The translations under genes were made by a program, and so were the position numbers. This document shows, in pieces, positions 40,413 to 56,383 of a DNA stretch of 64,000 nt (positions within the stretch are counted from its first letter, which is position 1; every line of letters starts with the position of its first letter). A model generated the notes under the pieces. The model ran no database searches, had not been told where the DNA came from, and worked only from the letters and a program-made list of their open reading frames with translations. The stretch comes from an uncultured Candidatus Saccharibacteria bacterium (GTDB lineage Bacteria; Patescibacteriota; Minisyncoccia; Phycocordibacterales; UBA2100): NCBI GenBank assembly GCA_964594735.1, contig CAZQMS010000004.1, forward strand, positions 13,241 to 77,240, read 5' to 3'.

Positions 40413-41612
<1,200 letters not shown>

Positions 41613-41646
41613 CACCGATGCTTCGCTCCGCCAGCTGGCGGACCGC

Positions 41647-41697: not shown

Positions 41698-41756
41698 GCC
41701 AACGTTTCCCGTAGCCTCCCGCTGCACAGAAAACCCGCCAGCAATGGCGGGTTTTC

Positions 41757-42392: not shown

Positions 42393-42779
42393 ATCATTAT
42401 TTTGGCTTAAAACCGACCCTATCACAACTTGCGTGTGTGGACAATGAAGCGTCGTCCAGGAAAACTTGACAAAAGAAGCGACCTCGATTATACTTACTGC
42501 AACACGACCCAACGCCCCTACGAGAGTTAGTGCGCTCGTGCCGTGATTATCAGACTAAGTCAAACACTCCATGAGTAAGGAATCCAAGACCTCTTTGAGG
42601 GGTCGAGATGCTCGAACAGGTGAGTTCACCACAGTCGAGAAAGCTCGCAATAACCCCGCCACTCACGTTGTCGAACGCGTCCCGAAGCCGGGACACGGCG
42701 ACACGGACTAACGTCATGCGATGAGCAGCGGCGACGCATGTCGCCGCTGCTTTGAGGATTAATATTATTGTAAAGAAAC

Positions 42780-43361
42780 ATGGCAAGAAAGTGTTTTATC
42801 TCCCTCAAAACGGAGGACATGCTTTATAAAGAAGCCATCCAGAAACTGGGTGTCGATATGGTCGATAAATCGCTCGATAATCCTATCGAGTCCGATGACG
42901 AGGATTACATCATGCGCCGCATACGCGACGAGAACCTTTCAGACTCTACGGTCACGATTTTTCTCATTGGTCAACGGAGTGCCGAGGCGCTCGGCGCACA
43001 CGAACAGAGGTTCATAAAGCGTGAACTCCAGGCCTCACTTTATGACGGAGAGAACAATCCGAGAAGTGGCATTCTTGGCGTGGTGCTCCCTTCGATGACA
43101 CAGGCGGTATTTCGCGGCTCAGGTGGTTGCAGTGGTTGCAGAGAGCACATTGGTATTGTTCACGCGAATGACAGTACCATGATTAAGGAGTTCCATAAGA
43201 ATTACTATACGAAAGACGACCAATGTCATCATGGGGAAGACGAGCGCTACTGTGTCCTTGTTTCTTGGGACGATTTCATCGTGGAACCAGAAAAATACAT
43301 CGAACAAGCGTATGCTAAAAGAGAACATCCCATCTCGCAGAGCGTCAGAGTTCGACCATAA
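42780..43361 (+). CDS. TIR-like domain protein (ThsB / DUF1863-like)
   Basis: Matches the ThsB-like pattern: N-terminal ARKCFISLKTED, then VTIFLIGQRSAE..RFIKRELQAS...GILGVVLP. Confidence 0.65.
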   Translation: MARKCFISLKTEDMLYKEAIQKLGVDMVDKSLDNPIESDDEDYIMRRIRDENLSDSTVTIFLIGQRSAEALGAHEQRFIKRELQASLYDGENNPRSGILGVVLPSMTQAVFRGSGGCSGCREHIGIVHANDSTMIKEFHKNYYTKDDQCHHGEDERYCVLVSWDDFIVEPEKYIEQAYAKREHPISQSVRVRP

Positions 43362-43362
43362 T

Positions 43363-43818
43363 ATGTCTGAAACACCTGGGATCGCAAATAATGAACCGAA
43401 TTCGGGCTATGGTCGCCTTGAGGAACAGATTCGCTGGTATGATCAAAAGTCCGTAAGTGCGCAGGCTTGGTACAAGAATACAAAATTTATTGAGATGGTT
43501 TGCGCCGTTGCGTTACCCCTGGCCGCCGTTTATGAATTCAATATCGTATCCGTTGGACTCGGCGCTATCATAGTGCTGCTTGAGAGCTTGCAGCACTTGA
43601 ATCAATGGTCTCAAAACTGGGTCATGTATCGTTCGACCTGCGAGGCTCTTCGTCACGAGAAATACGCATACATGGGACGCACGGGTATGTATGACGTGAA
43701 AAATGATGAAGAAGCAAAGAAGATTCTTGTTTCGCAGGTGGAAACACTTGTCTCAACCGAGCACTCAAAGTGGAATTCACGACAAGAGTACGAAACGCAT
43801 CGAGGGAATCGGGGCTAA
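43363..43818 (+). CDS. SLATT-like (DUF4231) 2-TM effector domain protein, translationally coupled to the TIR-like gene
   Basis: LEEQIRWYDQKSVSAQAWYKNTKFIEMVCAVALPLAAV followed by a second TM segment. ATG 1 nt after the upstream TAA. Confidence 0.6.
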   Translation: MSETPGIANNEPNSGYGRLEEQIRWYDQKSVSAQAWYKNTKFIEMVCAVALPLAAVYEFNIVSVGLGAIIVLLESLQHLNQWSQNWVMYRSTCEALRHEKYAYMGRTGMYDVKNDEEAKKILVSQVETLVSTEHSKWNSRQEYETHRGNRG

Positions 43819-43820: not shown

Positions 43821-43881
43821 GCAAAAAACGGCTTAAAAACCGCAAGAAATCAAAAGACCGCGGCGGTGGTATTGTGTGCCT
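43821..43881. repeat. Island repeat copy 1 (short form: AAAAAACGGCTTAAAAACC-GCAAGAAATCAAAAGACCGCGG + GGTGGTATTGT 5'UTR module)
   Basis: Seen in sequence. Confidence 0.8.
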
Positions 43882-44388
43882 ATGTCAGTCATTACGTACG
43901 TTGATGAAAACGATAACGTGATAGGGCAGGGGGAGCGCACTGATGCTCTAGCGAAAGGAATTATTCACCGCATCTCTCGCGTTTTCGTATTCAATTCTCA
44001 GGGGGAGATATTGATACAGAAGCGTTCCGCGAACATATCGCTTCCGAACTTATGGGACCAGTCGGCCGCCGGCCACGTAGACCCGGGCGAGGATTATATG
44101 TCTGCCGCCGAGCGTGAACTTCGCGAAGAAACAGGAATTCAGAACGTCCCACTGCGCGAACTCGTCAAATACTATGCGGAAGAAACGGATCAAGGTGTGA
44201 CGGCGAAACGATTCAGTACGCTGTACGTCGGGACATACGATGGCGATGTACATACCACCCCGGAAGAAGTCGCGGAGTTGCGCTGGATAACGCCTGACGA
44301 GCTTGCAGCATGGATGAGAGAAAAACCCCAGGATTTCACGCAAGGATTCATAAAGTGCTTTGAGCAATACCGCCAAAAAACGGCTTAA
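43882..44388 (+). CDS. Nudix hydrolase
   Basis: Nudix box GHVDPGEDYMSAAERELREETGI. The stop codon lies inside the next repeat copy (CGGCTTAA). Confidence 0.8.
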   Translation: MSVITYVDENDNVIGQGERTDALAKGIIHRISRVFVFNSQGEILIQKRSANISLPNLWDQSAAGHVDPGEDYMSAAERELREETGIQNVPLRELVKYYAEETDQGVTAKRFSTLYVGTYDGDVHTTPEEVAELRWITPDELAAWMREKPQDFTQGFIKCFEQYRQKTA

Positions 44389-44412
44389 AAACCCCAAGAA
44401 ATCAAAACGCTG
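44375..44412. repeat. Island repeat copy 2 (short form)
   Basis: CAAAAAACGGCTTAAAAACCCCAAGAAATCAAAACGC. Confidence 0.75.
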
Positions 44413-44522
44413 CACCGACGACACCCCTATATCCTTAAGGATGTGAGGATGTCGCGGCGGGTTTGACCTGCTCTGCATACGAATGTAGAGTCCCGCGCAG
44501 GAAGCAGCCCACGGAGGAGCAC

Positions 44523-44948
44523 ATGCTCGACATCAGGATCCCGTATGCCGTAGATCGCGCCATCGCGGTCGTTCGGAGTATCAGTGACGGTACGCTCAAC
44601 TACCCGCATCTCAAGCGACCCGTATGGAACGGACTGCGCATAACGCGGGTGACGCTGGTCGAAGTCGGCAGCAATTGGCAGCACGGCGGAGCCCAGCGCA
44701 ATGGCACCTGGGAGTTTCGAGCCACTGCCCAGGTCTTCGGCTCTCGCAACTACAACAATGAGGAGCTGCTCGCAGAAGTGCACCTCAAAGGCTGCACGAC
44801 GAAGCACGAGGAAGCCGCGATCACCGCCGATCATTCGAGCTGGCGACCGACGTTTGCCACGTACCTCGGCGTTGAAGGCGCAGGCGAAGGTCAATGGAAA
44901 GAGGGGTGGATCTCGGTGTCGAACCTCAACGGCACTCCGCTCCTCTGA
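44523..44948 (+). CDS. Hypothetical protein
   Basis: GGAGGAG ribosome-binding site before the ATG at 44523. Confidence 0.45.
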   Translation: MLDIRIPYAVDRAIAVVRSISDGTLNYPHLKRPVWNGLRITRVTLVEVGSNWQHGGAQRNGTWEFRATAQVFGSRNYNNEELLAEVHLKGCTTKHEEAAITADHSSWRPTFATYLGVEGAGEGQWKEGWISVSNLNGTPLL

Positions 44949-45005
44949 ACCAGCGAGAATATCTCGAAGCGGCCGCGAACTTCGCGGCCGTTATTGCTTT
45001 TCCAT

Positions 45006-45086
45006 CCAAAAAACGGCTTAATCCGCCAGCTGGCGGACCCCAAGAAATCAAAAGACCGCGGCGCGCCTGAGCGCCGCGGTCCTTTC
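45006..45086. repeat. Island repeat copy 3 (full form: AAAAAACGGCTTAA + TCCGCCAGCTGGCGGACC + CCAAGAAATCAAAAG + GC-hairpin terminator)
   Basis: Preceded by a separate terminator at 44970-45000. Confidence 0.85.
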
Positions 45087-45107
45087 TGCTTGGAACAGCC
45101 GGCTCGA

Positions 45108-46580
45108 TTACTGAACGTAAATCGAAACCGGGGGCTTGAACTCCGAGCACACACGGTGCGCATCATGCACGGGATGGTTGAGGAACCACTGCTCGAAGTC
45201 GTGGGGCATCTGCGCGTCGTCGACCTTCGGCATCACGTCGCCGATGACCATCTGACGGAGCACCGGACCCCACTTCCGTCCGCCGAGGCGGGCGGTCACG
45301 GAGCAGTTGTCGATCAGGTAGTCGATACCACGAACGTGCATGTACGGATTGAGCGAATCCGTGGCCTCGATGATCGTCTCGTTCACGATCTCGGACCAGC
45401 AGTGCCCGTTTTCGCGAAGCACTTCCACCTGCGCGAGCATCATCCCGATGTACGAACCAGAGGTGCGTGCATCGAGCGGGACTTCGACATTGCCCTTGCG
45501 GGCGGTCTCGCCGGTGCGCCACATCTGCGTACCGTCGACCTTGGTCCAGCCGAAACGCTCGATGGCGTTCGTTTGGTCGATGACGCTGCCGATCTCGCGT
45601 CCACTCTTCACCTCGTTGTAGATCTCGGTGACGATCGGAAGCGAGTGCCTGTAGGACAGGTAGACCGTCCGCAGGAACTCGGCGCGATTCGCGACAGGGA
45701 TCGCCTCGAGAATGCCGAGCAGGCCCTTCTCTGAGATGATCTTCGAGATCGGGCCGGTGATCGCCATCGCGCTACGCGCGAAGGCCTCGTGCGGAAGCAT
45801 CTGCTTGCCGATGTAGTAGTCGTTCATCGCTTCCGCCGTCGCCCAGACGCCGCCGAGCAGAATGTTGCGTTCGCCCGAGATGTCGCTGAGGTATTCCTTC
45901 TCCAGCGTCGTCTCGAACACGTACGGCGACCCGATGGCAATCGCCCAGCCCAGCGCGATGTTGCGGGCGCGGCCCGTCACGTCCTGCTGGATTGCGTAGC
46001 TCGCGTTGATGCCGGCACCGTTGACGCTCTTGCCCTGCACATACAGCGCACGAACGGACGGACCCATGCCCTTCGGGCACACAGCGACGACGTTGATGTC
46101 GTCGCGGAACTTCATGCCGACAATCTTCATGTAGCCGAGCACGAAGCCGTGCGAGAAGCCGAGCGTAGCGCCGGCCTTCATCGACCGCTGAATGCTGTCG
46201 ACGAGCTTGGACTGCGCCGCATCGTTGATGAGCGCGATGACGAGGTCGGAAGCTGACGCCACGTCGAACATGTCGCCGGCAGTGCCGTCATCCACGGTAA
46301 AGCCGCATTCCGCAGCTTTCGCGAATGACGAGCTGTTCTTGCGAAGTCCGACGACGACGCGGATACCGCGTCCGGCGAGCGATTCACGCAGATTCTGCGC
46401 CTGAGCGGGTCCTTGCGAACTCCAGCCCAGCACCGCTATCTGCGTGACGCCCTCGAAAGCCTGCGGCAACAGGTCGAACCTGTCACGGCCGCCGACGACC
46501 ACGTCTTCCGTCGTGCCGGCGAGCTCGATGCGTCTCACCCCGAACACGTTGTCTTGAGTCTGGGTCATGCTTGTCTCCAC
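45108..46580 (-). CDS. Ketol-acid reductoisomerase, class II (IlvC-like)
   Basis: GWSSQGPAQAQNL, LGFSHGF and VAVCPKGMG motifs. Length about 490 aa. Confidence 0.75.
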   Translation of the reverse strand: METSMTQTQDNVFGVRRIELAGTTEDVVVGGRDRFDLLPQAFEGVTQIAVLGWSSQGPAQAQNLRESLAGRGIRVVVGLRKNSSSFAKAAECGFTVDDGTAGDMFDVASASDLVIALINDAAQSKLVDSIQRSMKAGATLGFSHGFVLGYMKIVGMKFRDDINVVAVCPKGMGPSVRALYVQGKSVNGAGINASYAIQQDVTGRARNIALGWAIAIGSPYVFETTLEKEYLSDISGERNILLGGVWATAEAMNDYYIGKQMLPHEAFARSAMAITGPISKIISEKGLLGILEAIPVANRAEFLRTVYLSYRHSLPIVTEIYNEVKSGREIGSVIDQTNAIERFGWTKVDGTQMWRTGETARKGNVEVPLDARTSGSYIGMMLAQVEVLRENGHCWSEIVNETIIEATDSLNPYMHVRGIDYLIDNCSVTARLGGRKWGPVLRQMVIGDVMPKVDDAQMPHDFEQWFLNHPVHDAHRVCSEFKPPVSIYVQ

Positions 46581-46624
46581 CCATGTGTGTTGGCCCCAAT
46601 GCCAACCTGGCGAAACCCTACACT

Positions 46625-46730
46625 AGGGGCGCGGAAATCAAAAGTCCGAAAAAGGGCTTAAAAATTCATCCTGAGCACGTCGAAGGACCCCAAGAATTCA
46701 GGGTCGTAAAAATCAAAGACCGCGGCGATT
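46625..46730. repeat. Island repeat copy 4 (degenerate, with a different insert in the palindrome slot)
   Basis: AAAAAGGGCTTAAAAA...CCCCAAGAATTC...AAAATCAAAGACCGCGG. Confidence 0.6.
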
Positions 46731-46780
46731 GACCGGGAGGGGGAGCAAATGTAAGGTTTCGCAGGAAAGGGAGGTGGCGA

Positions 46781-47332
46781 ATGATTACCACCTGGGATTT
46801 GCGACACATCACCAAGCCGGAAATGCTGCGGATACTGAAGAACGTTCCGGGCTTCACCCTTGTCGAACAGGTGCCGTACGAAAAGCGCGAGATCGATCTC
46901 TCGGGCTTTGAGTGCGAGCATCCCAATCAGGCGCGCATGGTCCGACGTGAGCTCGAAGAGGCGACAACGGCATGTGAGGAGTTTCTGTCCGGCATCATCC
47001 TCACCGACTCGTTCAAGAACCACATTGAGCGGCGAATCTGGCGTCGTTCGATGGCCGACTACTTCGGCGGTGCCTTCGTTGACCTGTATCGTTCAAACAA
47101 GCTGCGGGTCAATACATTGTGCTGGGTCGATATCACATTCCAGACGATTGGTCAGGGGTTGAGGATATACAAGGTCTCCTCTGACCGTGCGGCAGCGATC
47201 CGTCAGCTTGTTGCGAATATGCCGAGCCTTCGTCAATACGAGGATTCCCTCGCCATCAATCAAAAGCTCGGGTTCGTCGCGGAGTACGACAAGGTCTGCC
47301 GTTCCTTCCTCGACATCGTTGCCAAACGATGA
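46781..47332 (+). CDS. Hypothetical protein
   Basis: GGGAGGTGG ribosome-binding site. Confidence 0.45.
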   Translation: MITTWDLRHITKPEMLRILKNVPGFTLVEQVPYEKREIDLSGFECEHPNQARMVRRELEEATTACEEFLSGIILTDSFKNHIERRIWRRSMADYFGGAFVDLYRSNKLRVNTLCWVDITFQTIGQGLRIYKVSSDRAAAIRQLVANMPSLRQYEDSLAINQKLGFVAEYDKVCRSFLDIVAKR

Positions 47333-47339
47333 ACACGAA

Positions 47340-47455
47340 ATACGAAACGGCCGCGCGAATGCGGCCGTTTTGCTTTGTATACAAAAAACGGCTTAATCCG
47401 CCAGCTGGCGGACCCCAAGAAATCAAAACCCCGCGGAATTGCCGCGGGGTTTCTT
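47340..47455. repeat. Island repeat copy 5 (terminator AACGGCCGCGCGAATGCGGCCGTTTTGCTTT + full form + terminator). Nearly identical to copy 10.
   Basis: About 90 nt are ~95% identical to 50166-50258. Confidence 0.85.
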
Positions 47456-47473
47456 CGTGCAATGCGTTTGCGG

Positions 47474-47956
47474 TCAGACTGTCTCCAGGTCCCACAGAAT
47501 CGAACGAATGTTGCCGGGGCTTCCGGTCAACAGGTAGTCGGCGACGGTGTAGGTTGGCAGCGGCTGGTAGCTCGTCAGCCATTTGCGCCACGCGGCCGAC
47601 GAATCGCCGAGCCGCTTTGTCAGCGCATAGTTCATTTGGGCCCAGAGGCAGACGCGGTCCCACATCACGGCGTTCTGCTTGTCGTAGAGCTCCACGTGAA
47701 TCTGCTTGCTAAGTTCGCCAGCACTTCCGATCGTCCAGCCCATCCAGTGCATGAAGCCGAACGCTTCGCCCCGAATCGGTTCGAAATCCCAAATCTTGGT
47801 GACAGCTTCGATCGCATCGTTGATCAGGTTGCGCTCGACCCAATCGAAGTTATACGCCGGTGTCGGCGTCGCTTTCGCGAACTGTGGTGCGCCCGCGACC
47901 ATGAGGCACGCGGCGGTTGAAAGCAAAAAGTGTCGGCGAATCACTTTCATCGTCAT
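47474..47956 (-). CDS. Secreted hypothetical protein (Tat-like RRHFLLS signal)
   Basis: Signal peptide at MTMKVIRRHFLLSTAACLMVAGA. Confidence 0.45.
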   Translation of the reverse strand: MTMKVIRRHFLLSTAACLMVAGAPQFAKATPTPAYNFDWVERNLINDAIEAVTKIWDFEPIRGEAFGFMHWMGWTIGSAGELSKQIHVELYDKQNAVMWDRVCLWAQMNYALTKRLGDSSAAWRKWLTSYQPLPTYTVADYLLTGSPGNIRSILWDLETV

Positions 47957-48030
47957 CCCTCCATCCGGCGGTACGGTTCGACCGTAGCGCTCTGTGCGCC
48001 ACACTACACGAACAAGAACTCAAATCAAAC

Positions 48031-48106
48031 GCTCAAAAAACGGCTTAATCCGCCAGCTGGCGGACCCCAAGAAATCAAAAGACCGCGGTGGTGGTATTGT
48101 ATTGTC
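48031..48106. repeat. Island repeat copy 6 (full form + GGTGGTATTGTATTGTC 5'UTR module ending at the ATG)
   Basis: Seen in sequence. Confidence 0.85.
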
Positions 48107-48607
48107 ATGAACGAGTCACTGCGTCCTGCGCCGAGAGAATCCGTAGATTTGTCGGAAGAAAAGCAGGAGCTACTGAAGCTGGAAGCGGAAGAGCGTTTCG
48201 TTTTTCATGGAACAGCAGCAGATGTCGATGCGCTCGAACCGAGGCAGGCTGTCGACAACGTGCGCGGTCCGGACGGCAACCCTGCGGTTTTTGCTTCTTC
48301 AAAGGCGGACTATGCGATTTTTATGGCCATATTCAACAAAGAGAACTGTCCGACAGGGACTAAAACAACAAGCGGCTTCACCATTGATGATGCGGGCACA
48401 ATAGAAATGAAATTTAGCGCTTCGAAAAGTACCTTGGAAACTCTACGTCCAGCAGCAGCGGGTTGGGTGTACGTGTTCGATAAGAGTAACTTTGCTGTGC
48501 GCCAGCCCGGGTCTGTCGAGTTCGTAAGTGAGAAACAGGTGCATCCACTGCGCAGGATTCGTGTCACGAAGCGTGATCTACCAGAAAACATACAAGCGAC
48601 GGACTAA
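48107..48607 (+). CDS. Hypothetical protein
   Basis: ATG directly after the conserved UTR module. Confidence 0.45.
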   Translation: MNESLRPAPRESVDLSEEKQELLKLEAEERFVFHGTAADVDALEPRQAVDNVRGPDGNPAVFASSKADYAIFMAIFNKENCPTGTKTTSGFTIDDAGTIEMKFSASKSTLETLRPAAAGWVYVFDKSNFAVRQPGSVEFVSEKQVHPLRRIRVTKRDLPENIQATD

Positions 48608-48649
48608 AATTTTAGGTGAGGGAAAGGTGTCAGGTACCATTCTTCAGCA

Positions 48650-48696
48650 GACGGCTTTAAAACCCCAAGAATTCTGGGCGATGGTATTGTTAAGGT
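48650..48696. repeat. Island repeat copy 7 (short form + GATGGTATTGTTAAGGT UTR module)
   Basis: Seen in sequence. Confidence 0.7.
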
Positions 48697-49029
48697 ATGA
48701 AGATTTCTTTGGATCAAACAGATGTACACGACCTTGGGGATTTCAAGGCGAGTTTCTATGTAAAAAAAGAAGACGGGCGTGGTTTCAACGCGCTCCTCGT
48801 CGACTGCGTTACTCGTCACTACAAAACTCGCCTTATAGGATCGACGCGAGGGTATCTGATATTAGATGGTGTGGGTACGTTTACAATCAACGGGGACGTT
48901 CAGCAGGCCAAGCAGCACGATCTTTTCCTAATCGGATCTGGCGACGAATATCGATACGAAGGAAAGATGAGACTTTTTGAATTCAACGTTCCTGCGACCG
49001 ATGCGGTAAACGAAGAGCGACTAGACTGA
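48697..49029 (+). CDS. Cupin domain protein
   Basis: Cupin beta-barrel motifs (LILDGVGTFTINGD...LFLIGSGDEYRYEG). Confidence 0.55.
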   Translation: MKISLDQTDVHDLGDFKASFYVKKEDGRGFNALLVDCVTRHYKTRLIGSTRGYLILDGVGTFTINGDVQQAKQHDLFLIGSGDEYRYEGKMRLFEFNVPATDAVNEERLD

Positions 49030-49030
49030 C

Positions 49031-49115
49031 TAAAAAAACGGCTTAATCCGCCAGCTGGCGGACCCCAAGAAATCAAAAGGCCGCGGCGCGCTACTCTGCG
49101 CCGCGGTCTTTTTCT
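49031..49115. repeat. Island repeat copy 8 (full form + terminator hairpin)
   Basis: Seen in sequence. Confidence 0.85.
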
Positions 49116-49121
49116 TCGGTT

Positions 49122-49550
49122 TCATGCGGGAACAAGTCCGTCCTGCGATTCGTACGATTCGACCTCGCGCTTCACTTTGCGCTTGCGCCGCGGGCGGAAG
49201 CGGAGTCGAAAGTCGAAATAGTGCATGTTGCGGATGTTGAGCTCAACAGTAATCTCGACATCTGTACCCGGCGGCTCAGTCCAACTGGTGAGCCGTAGCT
49301 CGATGAGATGCTCTTCCCATACTTCGTTGAGCCGTACTTCTGCGACTTCGAGCCTGATGAGGACGAGAAGCGCCCAGCGCGCAAGAAGATCGCCGCAGCA
49401 GTTGAGCGCCAGCACTTCCTTGAATGTCATCCAGCGCATGACTGGCATAGTGACCGAGAGATCGAGCATGGCACGGCTCAACGCAAGAATGAAGAGAAGC
49501 ACGGCCATCCCCACAGAGATTAGGACAATTCCGGCAATGATGAATCCCAT
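49122..49550 (-). CDS. Hypothetical membrane protein
   Basis: AAAGGGGGTG ribosome-binding site before MGFIIAGIVLISVGMAVLLFILAL. Confidence 0.4.
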   Translation of the reverse strand: MGFIIAGIVLISVGMAVLLFILALSRAMLDLSVTMPVMRWMTFKEVLALNCCGDLLARWALLVLIRLEVAEVRLNEVWEEHLIELRLTSWTEPPGTDVEITVELNIRNMHYFDFRLRFRPRRKRKVKREVESYESQDGLVPA

Positions 49551-49611
49551 GGAGCACCCCCTTTCTCTCGGCTTTCTATCACTCTGGGCAGGCATAGGCA
49601 AACGTCCAACA

Positions 49612-49670
49612 ATCGGCTTAAAAACCCCAAGACCTGTCCGCCTTGGGTGGGAATCAAAAGGCCGCGACCG
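49612..49670. repeat. Island repeat copy 9 (variant with an ACCTGTCCGCCTTGGG insert)
   Basis: Seen in sequence. Confidence 0.6.
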
Positions 49671-49724
49671 GTTTGACCATGCGGTAGGGCTTAGGGTAGG
49701 GTGGCCCGAGCCAAGGAGAGCGTC

Positions 49725-50174
49725 ATGGAGAGAGGCGAATTCGTCGCGCGACTCGATAGCCGCAATCCCGGCTATCCAAAGCTTGCTGAACTTTTCGAGT
49801 GCACCAGTTTCGACATTCGTCTGTTCCGGAAGGATCGGGACATAGTCGAGATCGTGAGAAATCTGGTGGACGATGGGTTTCCGCCTGTTGTCGACAGGCG
49901 ATTCCGTCTGATCATTGGTATCGAATCGCATCAGATGGTACGAGCGGACCTGTACCGGTACCATCGCTCAATGCCGCCTGTTGAGAGTGCGAACGCAGCT
50001 GAGATTATTCGTGCGTACGACCTCGACGCCGATGCGTACACTGAGAAGGGATTCGGATACCACTTCTCAATGATGCGTCAGCCAGGACTGCCGTATCGAC
50101 CCCGAGTCGGACTGCGCTATCGCCCCGACAACCTCGACAAAGAATTGTTCCTCGCATACGATACTGAAGTGTAA
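49725..50174 (+). CDS. Hypothetical protein
   Basis: AAGGAGAG ribosome-binding site. Confidence 0.4.
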   Translation: MERGEFVARLDSRNPGYPKLAELFECTSFDIRLFRKDRDIVEIVRNLVDDGFPPVVDRRFRLIIGIESHQMVRADLYRYHRSMPPVESANAAEIIRAYDLDADAYTEKGFGYHFSMMRQPGLPYRPRVGLRYRPDNLDKELFLAYDTEV

Positions 50175-50270
50175 ACGGCCGCGCGAATGCGGCCGTTTTG
50201 CTTTTATACAAAAAAAGGCTTAATCCGCCAGCTGACGGACCCCAAGAAATCAAAAGACCGCGGCAATTGA
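50166..50270. repeat. Island repeat copy 10 (terminator + full form). Nearly identical to copy 5.
   Basis: Seen in sequence. Confidence 0.85.
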
Positions 50271-50333
50271 CTGCAGCGCAACGCTCGGGGTAGGGTGTCG
50301 TGAGGAAAATTCACGATGCCGAGGGAGGCTGTC

Positions 50334-50957
50334 ATGGAAGGTTTTTTCGACTCGGTCACCGTTCGCATTCTGGCGGGTGTCGTCGTGGCAGTGCTCGGCA
50401 TCGCCTTGTACTTCTCGTTCGACATCTACCAGTTTTTCGCCCGGCGAGACTTCACTAATCTCAATGCGTACCTCGTCCACTTCACGCGCCACGACAACGG
50501 CTCGAAAGACGACGCTGTCCGACTTGAGCTCATCGGCTACAAGATTCCGCTCAGGGACATCTGCCGCAACCGCTTTCTCTTCTGGGTCATTCTGATTCAG
50601 TCGTGGAAAGCGACCGCGGAGAATCCGGTGCTCAACTTCGGCAAGTGGCGCTATATCTTGCCGCCGGTACGCGGGCGGGTGAGTGAGTGCTGGCGTTCGA
50701 TGGTGATGAAGAGGACGGCGGGGTTTCCGTACAAGGAAATGCCGTGCCAGCTCGCGCTGGTGTACGACCCGTCGGAGAGCAACTCCAACTTTGTCATCCG
50801 CATCATCCTTATCCAGGACCGCGACCTGAAGGACTTTGCGCAATACGAGGCGAAAAGGCCTATCAACTCCAACAATCTCGACTTCGTGCGGCGCATCGTG
50901 CGCGCGCACACGGAGAAGACGGGTAGCTTCATCAACGTGCGCATCACCGCTGCCTAA
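50334..50957 (+). CDS. Hypothetical protein with an N-terminal TM segment
   Basis: GAGGGAGG ribosome-binding site. Confidence 0.4.
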   Translation: MEGFFDSVTVRILAGVVVAVLGIALYFSFDIYQFFARRDFTNLNAYLVHFTRHDNGSKDDAVRLELIGYKIPLRDICRNRFLFWVILIQSWKATAENPVLNFGKWRYILPPVRGRVSECWRSMVMKRTAGFPYKEMPCQLALVYDPSESNSNFVIRIILIQDRDLKDFAQYEAKRPINSNNLDFVRRIVRAHTEKTGSFINVRITAA

Positions 50958-51066
50958 GTGGTGCACAGCATGAAGGACGGCCGCGCCTGATAATTTCGGG
51001 GCGGCCGCTTTGCTTTATGTCGAATGCGTGGCAAAGTACGGCCGGCAACAGAAATAGGGGACATGC

Positions 51067-51414
51067 ATGCCTCGAATCAATAGAAATCCGGCGCAGGCGA
51101 TTACGGAAGCGGAATGGAGCGTCATCAGAACAACGCTCAAAGACCCGCGTCTCGTAGCAGTCGTCGACAAGCTTCGCGAACGCAAGAACTTGCCGCAACT
51201 CGAGAGCGACATCACTGTCCGCGAGACGCCGAATTGCGTCGCCGAGAAAATCAACGACATCCTGCGCGTGAACGACGTCCGGTTCCGTCTCGTCCGTATC
51301 GGTACGGTGAGGTGGCCGCAGACGCGAGGGAACAGGAGGTTGGCACTCGCGCGCTGGCCTGCGACGACACAATTCAAGCTCCGGCTTGAGCCGCGCTACG
51401 AGCATGCCTCGTAG
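51067..51414 (+). CDS. Hypothetical protein
   Basis: AGGGGA ribosome-binding site. Confidence 0.4.
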   Translation: MPRINRNPAQAITEAEWSVIRTTLKDPRLVAVVDKLRERKNLPQLESDITVRETPNCVAEKINDILRVNDVRFRLVRIGTVRWPQTRGNRRLALARWPATTQFKLRLEPRYEHAS

Positions 51415-51436
51415 CGCGAGCTTTTTATTGTGTCTT

Positions 51437-51520
51437 CAAAAACGGTTTAAAATGTATCCCGTGAGATGCTCTGCTATCTAATGGGGCCCCCAAGAATTCT
51501 TGGCGACGGGTTTGGGGATG
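51437..51520. repeat. Island repeat copy 11. The palindrome slot is occupied by a family-B-like inverted repeat (TATCCCGTGAGATG...TATCTAATGGGG).
   Basis: Chimera of the two repeat families. Confidence 0.6.
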
Positions 51521-51522
51521 TA

Positions 51523-51550
51523 TTGACAATGTATATACAATGTATATACT
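51523..51550 (+). promoter_or_regulatory. Putative dinJ-yafQ promoter/operator: TTGACA followed by two tandem AATGTATATAC units (each containing the palindrome TGTATATACA), then TATACT
   Basis: -35 TTGACA, 16-nt spacer and -10 TATACT. Palindromic operator typical of autoregulated toxin-antitoxin operons. Confidence 0.55.
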
Positions 51551-51557
51551 TGTCTAC

Positions 51558-51812
51558 ATGACTCAAATCAACGTCAGGATAGAAGCGAAAACTAAACGAG
51601 AGGCGAGTAAGGCACTTGCAGACATTGGCCTCGACCTCTCTACAGGAGTGAAACTTTTCTTGCACCAGGTCGTTACGGAAAAAGGATTACCGTTCACTCC
51701 CACCAAAAATCCTGCCGCACTTCGAGCGAAGTGGGACAGGGAAATCGCTGAGTCCAGAAAGCGTGGCAAGTTCTACACGTCCGCACAAGAGATGCTCGAG
51801 GACGTTCTATAA
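51558..51812 (+). CDS. dinJ: RelB/DinJ family antitoxin
   Basis: MTQINVRIEAKTKREASKALADIGLDLSTGVKLFLHQVV. Confidence 0.8.
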   Translation: MTQINVRIEAKTKREASKALADIGLDLSTGVKLFLHQVVTEKGLPFTPTKNPAALRAKWDREIAESRKRGKFYTSAQEMLEDVL

Positions 51813-51819
51813 TTCTTGA

Positions 51820-52107
51820 ATGTATAGGATAAACACAACGAGCAGATTTAAGCGCTCGTTGCGAAAGCTTCGTCGCTCGGGAATGTTCAAGTCGAGCGTG
51901 GAGGCGGATCTTGTCGCCGTAATAAACACGCTGGCGGCCGGTAAAGAACTCCCACGCACATTCCGAGACCATGCACTTGAAGGTAGGCTCAGCGGACTGC
52001 GTGAATGTCATATCAAAGGGGATCTGCTCCTCGTCTACCAAAAAGATGCGGGCGCGATGCTGCTAGACCTGGTGGATATTGGTAGCCACTCTGAGATATT
52101 CGGTTGA
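51820..52107 (+). CDS. yafQ: YafQ family toxin (RelE/ParE superfamily mRNA interferase)
   Basis: FKRSLRKL...DHALEG...CHIKGDLLLVY; ends ...GSHSEIFG. Confidence 0.8.
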   Translation: MYRINTTSRFKRSLRKLRRSGMFKSSVEADLVAVINTLAAGKELPRTFRDHALEGRLSGLRECHIKGDLLLVYQKDAGAMLLDLVDIGSHSEIFG

Positions 52108-52112
52108 TACAG

Positions 52113-52215
52113 ACGGAAAACGACTTAATCCGCTCGCTGGCGGACTCAAGATCTGTCAGCCTTGGGCGGGAATCAAAAGACCGCGGCGCGCCTGAGCGCC
52201 GCGGTCCCGTTGCTT
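52113..52215. repeat. Island repeat copy 12 (extended full form + terminator hairpin GACCGCGGCGCGCCTGAGCGCCGCGGTC, the same hairpin as copy 3)
   Basis: Seen in sequence. Confidence 0.8.
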
Positions 52216-52219
52216 TGGA

Positions 52220-52798
52220 TCAATGCGTGGTGCTGGTATCCAGACCGAAGTTCCGAAAGTGGTCGATCGGATACTTTCCGGTCGACCACAGGGCGCCTTC
52301 GAGGTAGCCGAGCACTCCGAGAGCGACATCGAAACCGATTGTGTTTTCTTTCGCAATCAGGAGTCGAAGTGCTTCCACTTTAGCCTGCGCAAATTTGACG
52401 TCTCGCTCGGAGGGATGGAACTGCGGGCGCTCTGCGCCATCACCGTAGATCGGATGCTTCTTGCCATTGATGAGCCAGTCGTACTCGCGGATACCGCCGT
52501 AGGTCCCAAGCAGGCGGAACGCATCTGCCGGACGACTTTTGGATTCGCGCACGAGCCACGCCGCATGCGAAAGCCGCTTCGCGTGCGTGGCTTCACCATG
52601 CCGCGACTCGTAGCGGACGGGGCTGAATCTTGCGTGCGCGAGCATCATCTCGTGGTCTTCGATGTACGGACCGAGCGCCTTGCCGACGACGAGCGTCGCA
52701 AGGCTGTACGCTTGTGCGATCAGGATCACGTGTTCCGGCTGTGCCAGGAGTTCTTCACTCCGCTGACGGACGAGTTTGGAGAGTGTGGAAGGCAGCAT
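52220..52798 (-). CDS. Hypothetical protein
   Basis: ORF 52220..52837 trimmed to MLPSTLSK. The start is uncertain. Confidence 0.4.
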   Translation of the reverse strand: MLPSTLSKLVRQRSEELLAQPEHVILIAQAYSLATLVVGKALGPYIEDHEMMLAHARFSPVRYESRHGEATHAKRLSHAAWLVRESKSRPADAFRLLGTYGGIREYDWLINGKKHPIYGDGAERPQFHPSERDVKFAQAKVEALRLLIAKENTIGFDVALGVLGYLEGALWSTGKYPIDHFRNFGLDTSTTH

Positions 52799-52841
52799 GA
52801 CGACCCCACAATTGTTGACTGATTCGCACACTAGCATAGGT

Positions 52842-52886
52842 GGCCTTTAAACCTCAAGAATTCGTGGGTAGTGGTATTCTAGTTAC
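52842..52886. repeat. Island repeat copy 13 (short form + AGTGGTATTCTAGTTAC UTR module)
   Basis: Seen in sequence. Confidence 0.65.
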
Positions 52887-53207
52887 ATGACGTTCGAAGG
52901 TCCTCGGACCCCTCGCGACGTGCCAGGAGAGCGCGAAGAATCTCGCGAGGATGAATACATTTCCACTGCGGCGCTGGAGTATCGAGGACAGGTGTTCCGA
53001 GGCGGCAATCACGGCGACGCCCTGACTGCTCTAGAAGAAGCGGTGGGCGAGGACTACATGACGCGAGATGTCCGGGACGGATTCGTGACCTCAAAGGACA
53101 GGTTCGTCGATAGGATCGAGGCGGATGAGATTGCGGAGCGCAACGACCAGATCATCGGGCGGTCTCGAGGATTCTTGGACAGTAATTGGCTCAAGAAAAA
53201 GGAGTAG
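52887..53207 (+). CDS. Hypothetical acidic protein
   Basis: ATG directly after the UTR module. Confidence 0.35.
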   Translation: MTFEGPRTPRDVPGEREESREDEYISTAALEYRGQVFRGGNHGDALTALEEAVGEDYMTRDVRDGFVTSKDRFVDRIEADEIAERNDQIIGRSRGFLDSNWLKKKE

Positions 53208-53407
53208 AGCGCATTTCTCTCTTGGCAGCGAGCCTCGATATGTTACTCTCAGAGTACACAATATGAGCGACAGAATATCTTTCAGTGTTGAGTGTGTGGT
53301 GCCATTCCCGCCGGCGTATTCGATGTACGAGCCGTGCGGCGGTCACTAATCCCTACTTTACGACCACAAAGCCCCGCACGCCGCGGGGCTTTTTAATTCA
53401 CTCACCT

Positions 53408-54397
53408 ATGAAGATCATCACAGCAAAAGACATCAGAGACTTCGGATTCACAGACCTCTTCGAAAGCGCGGTGCGCTCGCTGGAGGCAGACATCATGCGC
53501 TGGCAGACGTTCCGCAAGAGCGTCCGCCACGCGACACACTTTACCCACGGCGTCTTCGAGCTCATGCCGTGCGCCGACGACAGCTACTACACGTACAAGT
53601 ACGTCAATGCACACCCGGCAAACCCGAGCCTCGGCAAGCTCTCGATAGTCGCGCTCGGCATGCTCGCGGATATCGAGACGGGCTACCCGCAGATGGTGTG
53701 CGACATGACACTCCTCACCGCGGTGCGCACTGCCGCCATGTCGGCCATCGCGGCCAAGCACCTCGCGCGCAAAGACTCGCGTGTGCTCGGGCTCATCGGG
53801 ACGGGCGCGCAATCGGAATTCCAGACGCTCGCGGTGCGCAGTCACTTCGCGATAGAAGAGATCCGCTACTTCGACCGCGATGCGCGAGCGATGGAGAAGT
53901 ACGCACGCAATCTTGGGGGAAGCGGCGTGCGGCTCGTCGCCTGCGAGAGTGCGGAGGAGGTGGTGCATGGGGCGGACATCTTCACCACATGCATCTGCGA
54001 GAAGGCCAAGGTAGAGCTCTTTCCCTTCGACGCGATCAAAGACGCGCGCGGTCTCTACATCAATGCGATCGGCGGCGATTGCCCGGGCAAGACGGAGCTC
54101 GATCCAGAGATACTGCGCCATGCGCGCATCGTGGTGGAGTACTACGAGCAGACGAAAGACGAGGGGGAGATACAGAATCTCGCGGGTGAGAGCATCGCCC
54201 ACGACGAGCTCTGGGAGATCGTGCAGGGCAAAAAGCACGGGAGGACCGGCGACGAGCTCATCGTCTTCGACTCGGTGGGCTTCGGGCTCGCCGACTATTC
54301 GGTGATGCGGATGCTCTTTGAGCGGGGTGTGGGGCAGGACGTGTCGCTCCTCCCTGAGCCGCAAGACGCGAAAGACCTCTTCGCCCTCGTGCGCTGA
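53408..54397 (+). CDS. Ornithine cyclodeaminase / mu-crystallin family protein
   Basis: Rossmann motif LIGTGAQSEFQ and overall family architecture. A terminator hairpin lies immediately upstream. Confidence 0.7.
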   Translation: MKIITAKDIRDFGFTDLFESAVRSLEADIMRWQTFRKSVRHATHFTHGVFELMPCADDSYYTYKYVNAHPANPSLGKLSIVALGMLADIETGYPQMVCDMTLLTAVRTAAMSAIAAKHLARKDSRVLGLIGTGAQSEFQTLAVRSHFAIEEIRYFDRDARAMEKYARNLGGSGVRLVACESAEEVVHGADIFTTCICEKAKVELFPFDAIKDARGLYINAIGGDCPGKTELDPEILRHARIVVEYYEQTKDEGEIQNLAGESIAHDELWEIVQGKKHGRTGDELIVFDSVGFGLADYSVMRMLFERGVGQDVSLLPEPQDAKDLFALVR

Positions 54398-54470
54398 AAA
54401 AAGGCTTAAAAACCCCAAGAAATCAAAAGGCCGCGGCGCGCACTCGACGCCGCGGTCTTTCTATTTGTGC
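54398..54470. repeat. Island repeat copy 14 (short form + terminator hairpin)
   Basis: Seen in sequence. Confidence 0.8.
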
Positions 54471-54489: not shown

Positions 54490-55941
54490 GTGATGTCCGG
54501 AGGAAAAACAGTCATCCGCTTCGAGGATGTTTCGTTCGAACACGGTCCGAAGCGCCCCATTCTCAGCGAGGTGAGCTTCGGCGTGAAAGAAAAAGCGAAG
54601 CTCACGCTCATGGGGCAAAATGGCGCGGGGAAGAGCACCATATTTGGACTCATCACGCGCGAGCTCGAGCCAGAGAGCGGCGTCATCCACAGAGCGCATG
54701 GCCTCTCGATTGCCACGGCGCGGCAGGTCATCCCGCGCGCGGAGCTCGCGCTCACCGTGCGCGAATTTTTCGAGAAGATGTTCCCCAAGAAGGTGTACGA
54801 TATCGACCCTCGCATTGATGCGGTGCTCGAAGTGGTGAATCTCCACGCGCCCAAGGAGCGCCTCGTGGGCTCGTTCTCGGGGGGTCAGCAGGCGCGGCTA
54901 CTCCTCGCCTCCGCGCTCATCCAAGAGCCCGACCTCCTGCTTCTCGACGAGCCGACGAATAATCTCGACAAGAGCGGCATCGCGCACCTCACCGCATTTC
55001 TTCAGGCCTACGATAAGACAGTGATTGTGATTTCGCACGATGCGGATTTCCTCAACGCGTTCACGCACGGGGTCCTCTACCTCGACGTACACACGCGCAA
55101 AGTCGAGCAGTACGTGGGCAATTACTTCGATGTGATGGATCAGATAGCCGACCGCATCGAGAAGGAGAACATGAAGAACGCGCAGCTCGCGAAGACGATT
55201 ATCGAAAACAAAGAGAAAGCCAACTTTTTCGCGCATAAGGGCGGTCAGATGCGCCTCGTGGCGAAGCGTATGCGCGCCAAGGCAGAAGAGGCAGAAGAAA
55301 ATATGGTGGATGTGAGAAAAGAGGACAAGACCATCCGGGATTTTACGATTCCCGCGCAAGAAGGTCTCTCGGGCGATGTGATTTCCATCTCGTCTTTCAA
55401 AGTGATTCGCAACCACAAGCCGCACCTGAAAAAGAAATCGGTCGTACTGCGCAAGAATCAGCACCTCCTGCTCTCCGGTCCCAACGGCATTGGCAAATCC
55501 ACGCTGCTCGAGTCGCTCGCGAGTGGTACTGCGGAGGGTGCGACAATCGCGCCTGGTGTAAAGGTAGGGTATTACCGCCAAGATTTTTCAAACCTCGACT
55601 TCGACGCGACCGTGCACGACATTCTCTGGAACACCATGCCCAAAGGGTACGAAGAGACGCTGCGGGCGACGGCGGCGAGCTTCCTCCTCACGGGCGACCT
55701 CGTGCACACAAAAATCGGGCACCTCTCAGAAGGGCAGAAGGGGCTCGTCGCTTTTGCGCGGCTCACACTCTTGCGACCGGGGCTCCTCATCCTCGATGAA
55801 CCCACCAACCACATCAACTTCCGCCACATCCCGGTCATTGCCAAGGCGCTCGACGCGTACGAGGGCGCGATGATACTCGTCTCCCACGTCCCAGAATTCG
55901 TCGCGCAGATACGCATCGACGAGACGCTTGAGCTCAGCTAG
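54490..55941 (+). CDS. ABC-F family ATPase (two ABC domains, no TM)
   Basis: Two Walker A motifs (GQNGAGKST, GPNGIGKST), two ABC signatures and two Walker B motifs. Confidence 0.8.
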   Translation: MMSGGKTVIRFEDVSFEHGPKRPILSEVSFGVKEKAKLTLMGQNGAGKSTIFGLITRELEPESGVIHRAHGLSIATARQVIPRAELALTVREFFEKMFPKKVYDIDPRIDAVLEVVNLHAPKERLVGSFSGGQQARLLLASALIQEPDLLLLDEPTNNLDKSGIAHLTAFLQAYDKTVIVISHDADFLNAFTHGVLYLDVHTRKVEQYVGNYFDVMDQIADRIEKENMKNAQLAKTIIENKEKANFFAHKGGQMRLVAKRMRAKAEEAEENMVDVRKEDKTIRDFTIPAQEGLSGDVISISSFKVIRNHKPHLKKKSVVLRKNQHLLLSGPNGIGKSTLLESLASGTAEGATIAPGVKVGYYRQDFSNLDFDATVHDILWNTMPKGYEETLRATAASFLLTGDLVHTKIGHLSEGQKGLVAFARLTLLRPGLLILDEPTNHINFRHIPVIAKALDAYEGAMILVSHVPEFVAQIRIDETLELS

Positions 55942-56020
55942 TTGGCACGCACTGCCGTAAGGGAGTGTCGGGGCACGATATTGCCTTTTGTGGGGCTTTG
56001 GTGCATACTCTGCGAGTTCT

Positions 56021-56383
56021 ATGACAGCGGAAACGACGGCAAAAAAGAGCCGCGCCAAGGCCAAAAAGGCCGATGGCGCCTCACGACTGCGCATCAAGGT
56101 GCGTGCCTATGAGCACGGCGTCCTCGACGGCGCGGTCAAGCAGATTATCGACGTCGCCGCGAGGCACAACGCCGAAGTCGTCGGCCCCGTCCCGCTCCCC
56201 ATCGACATCAAGAAATACACCGTCAATCGCTCGTCCTTTATCGACAAGGATTCCCGCGAGCAGTTTGAGATGCGCATCCACAAGCGCATGATAGACATCC
56301 TCAATCCCGCAGCGAAAGTCATCGAAGCCCTCACCAACATCGACCTCCCCTCGGGTGTCTCGATAGACGTCAAAATGATGTAA
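56021..56383 (+). CDS. rpsJ: 30S ribosomal protein S10
   Basis: RLRIKVRAYEHGVLD... Confidence 0.9.
   Translation: MTAETTAKKSRAKAKKADGASRLRIKVRAYEHGVLDGAVKQIIDVAARHNAEVVGPVPLPIDIKKYTVNRSSFIDKDSREQFEMRIHKRMIDILNPAAKVIEALTNIDLPSGVSIDVKMM

Follow-up and report, generated by a model that had tools for sequence, protein, structure and literature searches.

The 64-kb window analyzed here (positions 13,241 to 77,240 of contig CAZQMS010000004.1, the whole stretch of DNA under study) contains, in the gap between tuf, the gene for EF-Tu (40413-41612), and the genes for an ABC-F ATPase (54493-55941) and ribosomal protein S10 (rpsJ, 56022-56383), that is, at the junction of the str and S10 operons, an array of unrelated genes separated by 14 copies of a short modular repeat. 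The repeats derive from the flank of tuf, the ends of tuf have been both replaced and displaced, and the content of the island differs between relatives. Our reading, with a probability of roughly 0.55, is that this is a hypervariable island of accessory genes whose repeats are scars of the tuf 3' end, left by homology-driven recombination at tuf with no dedicated integrase. All the genomes compared are metagenome assemblies, and, to judge by the names given to close homologues of its EF-Tu and ABC-F, the host belongs to Parcubacteria/Paceibacterota, near Kaiserbacteria.

An earlier note on this DNA, made from its letters alone, had described 14 modular copies, and these proved real in pattern, regular-expression (regex) and profile scans. 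A regex joining head and core recovered 11 copies on the plus strand and none on the minus strand (0.04 expected in the window), while three degenerate copies, c7 (48650), c12 (52115) and c13 (52843), were spotted by eye, c12 being also picked up by an nhmmer profile. The copies are approximately 35-100 nt long, and all lie on the plus strand between 43823 and 54465, so that they span 10.65 kb and not the roughly 11.7 kb claimed. When the parts were searched separately, the core CCCCAAGAAWTCAAAAG gave eight matches with up to two mismatches and the head AAAAAACGGCTTAA gave 11 within 43823-54409, all of them on the plus strand, the expectation from shuffled sequence being 0-0.16 for these scans; one extra head match, at 29217, is an unrelated terminator. 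A profile hidden Markov model built from ten copies and run at maximum sensitivity found no copy in the other 53 kb of the window. Over 232 kb from 15 loci the regex gave 22 matches and nhmmer 20, all within tuf-to-ABC-F/S10 islands and on the strand of tuf, so the repeats are not uniformly scattered.

A full element consists of four parts: head, slot, core and GACCGCGGCG. The slot can be empty (AAA), or be occupied by the perfect 16-nt palindrome TCCGCCAGCTGGCGGA or by a 30-nt "hairpin A" (CCCGTGAGAT...ATCTAATGGG). In the long form (c9, c12, c7, c11, c13) the core is itself a hairpin (CCCCAAG-loop-CTTGGG), while in the short form it is cut down to CCCCAAGAAATCAAAAG. The TAA of the head of c2 serves as the stop codon of the Nudix gene (44386-44388), as had been noticed before. 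The near-identity proposed for c5 and c10, including an extra terminator, also holds: the 32-nt upstream terminator is identical and the next repeat of about 63 nt has few mismatches, the two showing 92% and 90% identity to the reference copy of their repeat family, which is close to the claimed 95% over some 90 nt, a figure that no single output gives. Likewise, c3 and c12 have identical GC hairpins, as stated earlier, and different left halves, and are therefore mosaic elements. Secondary structure is not significant in the short copies c1 and c9 (z = +0.6 to +0.9 against shuffles). Pairing of hairpin A is kept through two compensatory changes, with 97.5% of cells paired in five copies versus 30-50% with a slid partner, which is modest evidence of covariation; the slot palindrome decays without compensation. 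No Rfam family matched the window at gathering thresholds, and the island gave only sub-threshold matches on terminator hairpins (E <= 1).

The palindrome TCCGCCAGCTGGCGGA deserves separate mention. It is found at 41627-41642 and at 45022, 47397, 48049, 49047, 50224 and 52129, and in six elements, as well as in the displaced tuf remnant described below, it stands in for a 3-nt A-rich spacer (AAA or AAT, then CC); in the remnant its location coincides exactly with that of the recombination breakpoint. L006, one of the related loci (all of which are designated here by L numbers), has another perfect 16-nt palindrome, TGCCTGCCGGCAGGCA, in the loop of a core hairpin at about 6525-6545. These 16-nt palindromes behave like discrete inserted units or recombination by-products.

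Traces of recombination are present in tuf itself. Compared with the genes of L026, L001 and L004, the window tuf is 93-97% identical over positions -300 to -57 and only 67-70% identical over its last 54 nt, where nearly every codon carries a synonymous change. The original 3' end is found four bases past the stop codon: the part of this remnant at 41643-41697 is 87-91% identical to the tuf ends of L001 and L004, and the native terminator stands behind it. The island starts at the stop codon of tuf (41612), and not at 43821 as first proposed. In L035 the active tuf end is recoded over its last 21 nt or so, and two displaced tuf ends bracket a Fic cassette, the first (r1) of about 65 nt with hairpins and the second (r2) of 107 nt and around 92% identical in BLAST to the tuf end of the related L006. 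After r2 come a predicted leaderless promoter, the next cassette, and then an element with head, hairpin A and core. The crossover points in tuf vary, from -21 in L035 and -55 in the window to -101 or beyond in L035 r2. The displaced ends in the window and in L035 indicate that DNA carrying a tuf 3' end has recombined repeatedly into tuf, pushing the old end and its flank downstream.

The elements themselves can be traced to the same place. In L016 the native sequence right behind the tuf stop codon holds hairpin A and the stretch AAGACCTGTCC, and the first island element of that locus repeats head, hairpin A, core and the tuf-type terminator GAAAACCCGCC...GGCGGGTTTTCT. Three long-form elements, L016 el1, L003 el0 and window c11, were aligned locally to this native flank and scored z = 7.6, 10.7 and 6.6, respectively, with none of 300 shuffles equaling them, and L016 el1 scored z = 5.8-10.3 against the tuf terminators of four other genomes. 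In these flank alignments the head AAAAAACGGCTTAA pairs with the last tuf codons, AAGATAACGGCATAA or AAAATCACGGCCTAA. The elements therefore appear to have originated as copies of the tuf 3' end, together with its downstream hairpins and terminator, that decayed and were later propagated, where the earlier note could not relate the repeat to any system it could name. A second alignment, to a tuf coding stretch of 15 residues, would have put the palindrome at homologous positions in the elements and the remnant; it was rejected, as local alignments to that stretch were no better than shuffles (z <= 2.7).

Loci from relatives came from pattern scans and from contigs found to carry genes for close ABC-F or EF-Tu homologues. 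Ten related genomes have an island at the same place with almost entirely different genes (L001, L003/L004, L006, L007, L016, L026, L027, L035, L036 and L037). In L001 tuf is followed by HigBA-like and other cassettes; L004 and L003 run from tuf through Fic to ABC-F and S10; 13 small genes lie downstream of tuf in L006; L007 has five genes before ABC-F and five more before S10; L016 has six genes downstream of tuf and no ABC-F; L026 has two cassettes only; L027 carries OCD, HEPN, YCII and GFA genes; at least ten cassettes are present in L035, and L036 and L037 have variable islands of different content. The region is thus neither collinear nor invariant, its content differing in all ten relatives while the flanks are 82-97% identical at the DNA level. 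Some cassettes recur with different neighbors or at different positions: the DinJ-YafQ cassettes of the window and L006 are 81% identical, the window shares cassette X and the minus-strand neighbor of X with L001 and OCD with L027, the Nudix cassettes of L006 and L035 are 91% identical, and YCII and glyoxalase cassettes recur as well. Head/core elements occur in the window, L001, L003/L004, L006, L016, L021, L026 and L035, the degenerate copies in L026 and L035 having been identified by eye; in L001, L003/L004, L006, L016 and L021 every regex or profile match lies inside the island in the orientation of tuf. No elements were found in control loci L028-L032, relatives of the ABC-F gene (77-78% identity) in which it lies away from tuf and rpsJ, nor in L033, where a distant homologue of cassette X is an ordinary gene adjoining nth. 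Exact-pattern scans of GTDB genomes yielded only three true loci; those of JGI metagenomes yielded none the first time and two true loci among 18 the second time, the rest being chance matches in coding DNA; in IMG/VR there was one chance match in a proteobacterial phage and none for hairpin A. These outcomes point to a narrow clade with no link to viruses. The proteins of the window itself occur on only one or two contigs, from one sample, and an exact look-up of its EF-Tu protein gave no record. With respect to taxonomy, the L003/L004 contig CAZPGE010000002.1 is labelled "uncultured Candidatus Saccharibacteria", while its tuf and ABC-F/S10 DNA is 82-90% identical to the Parcubacteria-type window, and the label of that record looks doubtful.

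The order of events that we infer would be as follows. Foreign DNA recombining in at the 3' end of tuf would provide the gene with another 3' end, and the previous one, flank included, would be displaced downstream as a scar. A donor with the structure [tuf 3' part]-cassette-[tuf-like repeat] could insert through two staggered crossovers in the tuf end of the recipient, which would regenerate a transferable structure. Once in place, the direct repeats could act as homology patches for insertion, deletion and swapping of cassettes, both within the array and between lineages; recombination between internal repeats could delete, duplicate or swap cassettes, and would account for the mosaic elements c3 and c12 and for differences between arrays such as the position of the OCD gene. 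Most likely, DNA imported by the competence/type IV pilus machinery undergoes ordinary RecA-type recombination. ComEC, PilB, PilC and RecJ are encoded in the window, and no integrase, transposase or other recombinase domain was found by Pfam in its approximately 60 open reading frames (ORFs), in agreement with the earlier note as regards the integrase. No recombinase was seen either in the annotated neighborhoods of L006, L007, L026, L035, L036 and L037. A single site-specific recombinase would be expected to cut at one position, which homologous recombination would not. The variation in crossover points among the three datable events argues for homology-driven (or homology-anchored illegitimate) recombination over a fixed-site recombinase and, together with the competence genes and the lack of a recombinase in the window, is the reason to favor it. 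Of the two routes of assembly that had been proposed, site-specific or repeat-mediated, the former is not supported.

Several observations weigh against this scheme. Elements of 35-45 nt are poor RecA substrates. The head/core matches no present-day tuf end exactly, and no lineage was found whose tuf has the head as its end: of 120 close EF-Tu relatives, none has ...KKTA at its C-terminus. More than 30 nt of head/core are identical in the window, L001 and L004 even though their tuf genes differ by about 10%, and such uniformity is at least as compatible with a conserved recognition site, or with a unit that has spread recently, as with passive scars. The "fresh" tuf-end replacements, in the window and L035, are nearly free of cargo (4-32 nt plus a GC palindrome), insertion with cargo being inferred and not caught in the act. 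The OCD cassette is the most distal one in the window and proximal to tuf in L027, for which accretion at tuf alone is insufficient. Finally, the recombinase screen spans 64 kb of the host genome only.

Some of these facts would suit a true site-specific cassette system, in which a recombinase encoded in trans, elsewhere in the genome or on a helper element, excises and integrates single-gene circles in the manner of integrons, of ccr-less pseudo-SCC elements at rlmH or of Xer-dependent IMEX/pdif modules, head/core being attC-like and the tuf 3' end attI- or attB-like. This is a possible explanation that we regard as distinctly less probable. That over 30 nt of the element are identical between genomes with 10-18% divergence in their housekeeping genes would be expected from it, as would the strictly uniform orientation of the elements whatever the orientation of the genes, and the exact stop of the DinJ-YafQ homology block at the TTAA of the head; the synonymous recoding of the incoming tuf ends is reminiscent of integrase-borne att sites that rebuild their target gene, and the perfect 16-nt palindrome sits precisely at the crossover of the tuf remnant as well as in the slot of six elements. 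Such a system is disfavored by the tuf crossover positions, which differ between events, by the lack of a recombinase in the 64 kb and in the 10-20 kb around five other islands, by short elements devoid of significant secondary structure and of a core-site pair, and by a slot that varies in content (empty, palindrome or hairpin A) and whose palindrome decays uncompensated. A fuller version, in which head/core would be the recognition site of the trans-encoded recombinase, the tuf 3' end the primary insertion site of an integron-like capture platform of independent origin, and the cassettes would arrive with an insulating terminator and a leaderless promoter, seems doubtful to us.

Homology-driven recombination at tuf leaves room for a second role of the repeats, related to expression. 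When the next gene is on the minus strand, GACCGCGGCG is completed to a strong GC hairpin, which an A-tract precedes and a T-tract follows; the elements of this type (c3, c5, c8, c12 and c14) fold with z = -3.3 to -5.6, and the completed hairpin makes a predicted bidirectional terminator. When the next gene is on the plus strand, a promoter-like sequence occupies the place of the right arm of the hairpin. Two kinds are present: TTGAC(C/T/A)-N17-TA(G/A)(G/A)GT, and TGGTATT(G/C)T-N6-ATG, which precedes four cassettes (at c1, c6, c7 and c13) and has the same geometry in L006, L016 and L035. Because of this -10-to-ATG geometry, GGTGGTATTGT, 6 nt before the ATG, is probably the extended -10 promoter of a leaderless mRNA and not, as had been suggested, a conserved module of the 5' untranslated region. 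Plus-strand cassettes end in a terminator family of their own, specific to the island (AACGGCCGC...GCGGCCGTTTTGCTTTG). From their sequence, the elements would serve as both terminators and promoters, and as direct repeats they could work as insulators, terminating the gene to their left and giving the one to their right an outward, often leaderless promoter. Also related to expression, several cassettes in different genomes have an operator-like palindrome, ACATACTCATATACTTGGGTATGTGAGTATGT, ahead of their conserved promoter module GTTTGACC-N17-AAAGAT (L001 4565-4625 and 6530-6600; L021 775-830; L037 around 6900 and 7960); in addition, a promoter/5' module of about 45 nt is common to unrelated cassettes.

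Since every module can be read as terminator or promoter, the repeats might be expression signals only, that is, a lineage-typical terminator-promoter block made similar by selection and local gene conversion, with no part in gene movement, in an island that is a hotspot by virtue of its conserved flanks. The combination AATCAAAAG, GC hairpin and CTTTTGATT also occurs behind rpsJ in L003 and at other loci, and the islands of L007 and L027 are variable with no head/core elements, L007 using another repeated terminator-promoter block. We nevertheless find this unlikely: the most conserved part of the element is the 34-nt head/core, which is not a hairpin and has no obvious signal function; the copies are confined to the island and not distributed genome-wide; and the homology to the tuf flank, together with the displaced tuf ends, marks them as duplicates from recombination and not as convergent signals.

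The modular, hairpin-rich structure of the 40-110 nt elements, and the 16-nt palindromes that look like discrete insertions (TCCGCCAGCTGGCGGA in the window, TGCCTGCCGGCAGGCA in L006), could also recall a small non-autonomous mobile element, such as a miniature inverted-repeat transposable element (MITE) or a repetitive extragenic palindrome (REP) or bacterial interspersed mosaic element (BIME), that has spread into the intergenic gaps of the region. That is very unlikely, as the alignment shows neither terminal inverted repeats nor target-site duplications, the copies have a single orientation in one island with none in the other 53 kb of the window or in the flanking DNA of relatives, and no gene for a transposase or a RAYT-like protein is present in the window. 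Repeats of 60-125 nt with 90-100% identity could in turn mislead short-read assemblers into a chimeric contig, collapsed or stitched at the repeats. An artefact is nonetheless hardly credible, given that the independent Logan assembly of SRR15237806 gives the same last 4 kb of the array (and only those) and that the same architecture occurs in some ten independent assemblies from different samples.

The features of the island are listed in Table 1.

Table 1. Features of the tuf-ABC-F/rpsJ island (positions in the window).
Feature	Position	Strand	Remarks
tuf (EF-Tu)	40413..41612	+	Pfam-annotated orthologues; last 55 nt (41558-41612) foreign and synonymously recoded
Displaced original tuf 3' end, non-coding remnant	41616..41697	+	Split by palindrome TCCGCCAGCTGGCGGA (41627-41642); tblastn with EF-Tu C-terminus matches 41632-41691
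Native tuf terminator (GAAAACCCGCC...GGCGGGTTTTCT), "element 0" of the array	41729..41757	+	Conserved after tuf in L001, L004, L006, L026
LexA-like repressor (S24 peptidase + helix-turn-helix, HTH), first island gene	41757..42512	-	Pfam; homologous fragment in L007 island
ThsB-type TIR (42780-43361) and SLATT/DUF4231 (43363-43818)	42780..43818	+	Pfam, PADLOC ThsB; low G+C (0.47)
Element c1: head, empty slot, core, GACCGCGGCG, predicted extended -10 TGGTATTGT	43823..43875	+	ATG 6 nt downstream (43882)
Nudix cassette	43882..44388	+	Pfam; stop codon is TAA of head c2
Element c2, empty slot	44375..44408	+	Followed by TTGACC-N17-TAGAGT putative promoter, 44463-44491
Hypothetical cassette	44523..44948	+	Own putative terminator, 44968-44992
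Element c3: head, palindrome, core, complete GC-hairpin terminator (predicted)	45008..45097	+	RNA fold z = -4.9
KARI-like cassette	45108..46568	-	Pfam KARI_N / KARI_C
Element c4, degenerate slot insert	46648..46735	+	Followed by TTGACC...TAAGGT
Hypothetical cassette	46781..47332	+	Putative terminator 47345-47376 identical to that behind cassette X
Element c5: head, palindrome, core, predicted terminator	47383..47455	+	
Hypothetical secreted-protein cassette	47474..47956	-	Homologue in L001, 5264-5770
Element c6 with TGGTATTGT	48035..48100	+	ATG at 48107
Hypothetical cassette, low G+C	48107..48607	+	
Element c7: degenerate head, core CCCCAAGAATTCTGGG, TGGTATTGT	48650..48690	+	ATG at 48697
Cupin-like cassette	48697..49029	+	Weak Pfam match
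Element c8: head, palindrome, core, predicted terminator	49033..49116	+	RNA fold z = -5.6
Membrane-protein cassette	49122..49550	-	
Element c9, long form: core hairpin CCCAAG-ACCTGTCCGC-CTTGGG	49608..49672	+	Stretch AAGACCTGTCC also in L016 tuf flank
Cassette X (ORFan)	49725..50174	+	77%-identical homologue in L001 island, other neighbors
Element c10, one palindrome mismatch	50210..50266	+	Followed by TTGACT...TAGGGT
Two hypothetical genes (50316-50957, 51067-51414)	50316..51414	+	Putative terminator alone between them
Element c11: head, hairpin A (CCCGTGAGAT...ATCTAATGGG), palindromic core	51437..51522	+	Overlaps TTGACA putative -35; L016 tuf flank similarity z = 6.6
DinJ/RelB-YafQ toxin-antitoxin cassette	51540..52107	+	81% identical to L006 5862-6472; homology stops exactly at TTAA of head
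Element c12: degenerate head and palindrome, long core hairpin, c3-identical predicted terminator	52115..52216	+	
Hypothetical cassette	52220..52837	-	
Element c13, degenerate, with TGGTATTCT	52843..52880	+	ATG at 52887
T4_Y16D-like gene (52887-53207), 28-aa small ORF (53264-53350) and hairpin, OCD-family gene (53408-54397)	52887..54397	+	L027 homologue
Element c14, last copy, complete predicted terminator	54396..54465	+	Adjoins conserved ABC-F upstream sequence CTTTCTATTTG
Conserved right flank: ABC-F ATPase (54493-55941), rpsJ/S10 (56022-56383)	54493..56383	+	

As to gene content, the cassette-like array of unrelated, mostly single-gene modules in mixed orientation seen by the earlier note is confirmed, four to five of the roughly 14 cassettes being on the minus strand. 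Most of its gene calls are supported by Pfam (LexA-like S24, ThsB-type TIR, SLATT/DUF4231, Nudix, ketol-acid reductoisomerase (KARI), RelB/DinJ-YafQ and OCD), the cupin remaining a weak match; about ten hypothetical genes complete the island. Elements do separate most genes, and not essentially all of them as had been stated, since 50316-50957/51067-51414 and 52887-53207/OCD are divided by terminators only. Some cassettes have a G+C content of 0.47-0.49 versus 0.58 for the window, and a search of 5.8 billion proteins gave only three homologues of cassette X.

Individual cassettes offer further observations. At 41757-43818 the LexA-like S24/HTH repressor gene is divergent to that of the TIR effector with its SLATT partner; the pairing recurs in L007 (4539-6464), where the S24 part is fragmentary, which suggests that a repressor-controlled TIR defence module travels as a unit. 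The KARI-like gene encodes a lone long-form enzyme, with no other gene for branched-chain amino acid biosynthesis seen in the window. A small ORF of 27-28 amino acids, which reads MSDRISFSVECVVPFPPAYSMYEPCGGH in the window and MNTRVSFIVENVVPTPAANSKYQPSGV in L027, is conserved together with a terminator-like hairpin behind it directly upstream of the OCD-family gene in both loci (53264-53350 and 53352-53395 in the window; about 125-300 in L027), and could be a leader-peptide attenuator or a small peptide substrate.

Variability is not restricted to this side of tuf. In the window (34257-40172) the fusA-tuf interval is taken up by about 6 kb of genes for hypothetical, glycine-rich or CarboxypepD_reg proteins; it holds eight genes in L035 (2817-9616) and one in L036 (9400-9717), and may represent a second hotspot. 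Extra hypothetical genes are also found between rpsJ (S10) and rplC (L3) or between ABC-F and rpsJ (window 56449-59204, L037 9181-9639, L007 8061-11903), where L007 has a different repeated terminator-promoter block (GCGGCCGTTTTCTTTTG..GGGTGTATAACGC). Elsewhere in the window, 7-nt periodic (T/G)AGTATN / GTATG runs lie just before start codons in the type IV pilus cluster and recJ (9311-9350, 11009-11034, 13399-13424 and 19088-19127), possibly as a shared signal for translation initiation or regulation.

Bacteria of the candidate phyla have tiny genomes with few recognizable mobile elements, and little is understood of how accessory and defence genes reach them. This locus offers a concrete route of gene acquisition: unrelated genes line up, as predicted self-contained expression units with rapid turnover between lineages, in a single hotspot between the str and S10 ribosomal operons, and the essential tuf is the anchor, its own end and terminator being recycled into the repeats that give the array its modularity. 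If no dedicated recombinase is involved, the array is a natural case of integron-like modularity arising from ordinary recombination, which bears on the origin of cassette systems; if one is, this would be a new cassette system. The element profile is also a practical marker with which to find such islands in metagenomes.

Searches of the literature on integrons or cassette arrays in the candidate phyla radiation, hypervariable regions at tuf, and tuf as an integration site gave no description of such an array in the library searched. Among the known systems closest to it, integron arrays and CALINs, which are attC clusters by definition devoid of the integrase IntI, resemble it in their mostly single-gene, unrelated cassettes, toxin-antitoxin pairs and ORFans included, in the co-oriented repeats that are homogeneous within an array, and in their high turnover. 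An attC site consists of the core sites R'' (RYYYAAC) and R' (GTTRRRY), 45-140 nt apart around an imperfect palindrome that folds as a single strand. As the earlier note had anticipated, no attC geometry is present: no RYYYAAC...GTTRRRY pair overlaps any of the 14 elements. Integrons also have the tyrosine recombinase IntI, with attI and Pc, beside the array, and their cassettes are promoterless, co-oriented and expressed from a common promoter. In contrast to integrons, the elements have no obligatory imperfect hairpin and there is no IntI in the window; the cassettes have promoter-like sites (TGGTATTGT-N6-ATG; TTGACC-N17-TAGGGT) and terminators of their own, a third of them lie on the opposite strand, and the repeats derive from the flank of a housekeeping gene. 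Integrase-less modules with short conserved sites at their ends, and insertion behind an essential gene that is thereby left intact, are also known from Xer-dependent modules (IMEX at dif; pdif of Acinetobacter plasmids) and from the "safe harbour" of Tn7 downstream of glmS. The dif-like sites that bound Xer-dependent modules are 28-30 bp long, with two arms of roughly 11 bp around a spacer of 6-8 bp. No dif-like 11-6-11 site was recognized by eye in the element, no dif consensus being known for this lineage, and the locus differs from these systems in lacking a GC-skew switch, Tns genes, 5-bp duplications and transposon ends. REP/BIME or MITE families, which are dispersed in both orientations through intergenic regions of a genome, differ in distribution, given the zero copies of the element in the other 53 kb and on the minus strand and its absence from control loci L028-L032.

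The array has the structure typical of islands that accrete at the 3' end of a conserved gene, in a form with no integrase, no fixed crossover and single-gene units. Serial 3'-end accretion is known from islands linked to tRNA or tmRNA genes with repeated partial tRNA 3' ends, and from SCCmec and pseudo-SCC composites at rlmH (orfX). As in those, direct repeats from the 3' end of the target gene separate the units, all in the orientation of that gene; incoming DNA rebuilds the end of the target while the old end is displaced (41558-41612 versus 41616-41697 in the window; r1 and r2 in L035); units with no recombinase occur; and content differs between close relatives. The differences are that the target is tuf, that the units are single genes of 0.3-1.5 kb with promoter- and terminator-like signals of their own, that no integrase or ccr gene is seen nearby in the partial genomes inspected, that crossovers vary, and that the scars form a homogeneous 14-copy family common to several lineages. 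The array also fits the definition of a hotspot of horizontal transfer and recombination flanked by core genes, like the capsule and O-antigen loci, which are exchanged through homologous recombination in their flanks and with which it shares conserved flanks (tuf and ABC-F/rpsJ), a breakpoint within a flanking gene, the absence of mobility genes and the presence of a competence apparatus. What would set it apart from these is that the end of the flanking gene is duplicated at each event and the duplicates stay behind as internal repeats, giving the island its cassette-by-cassette structure.

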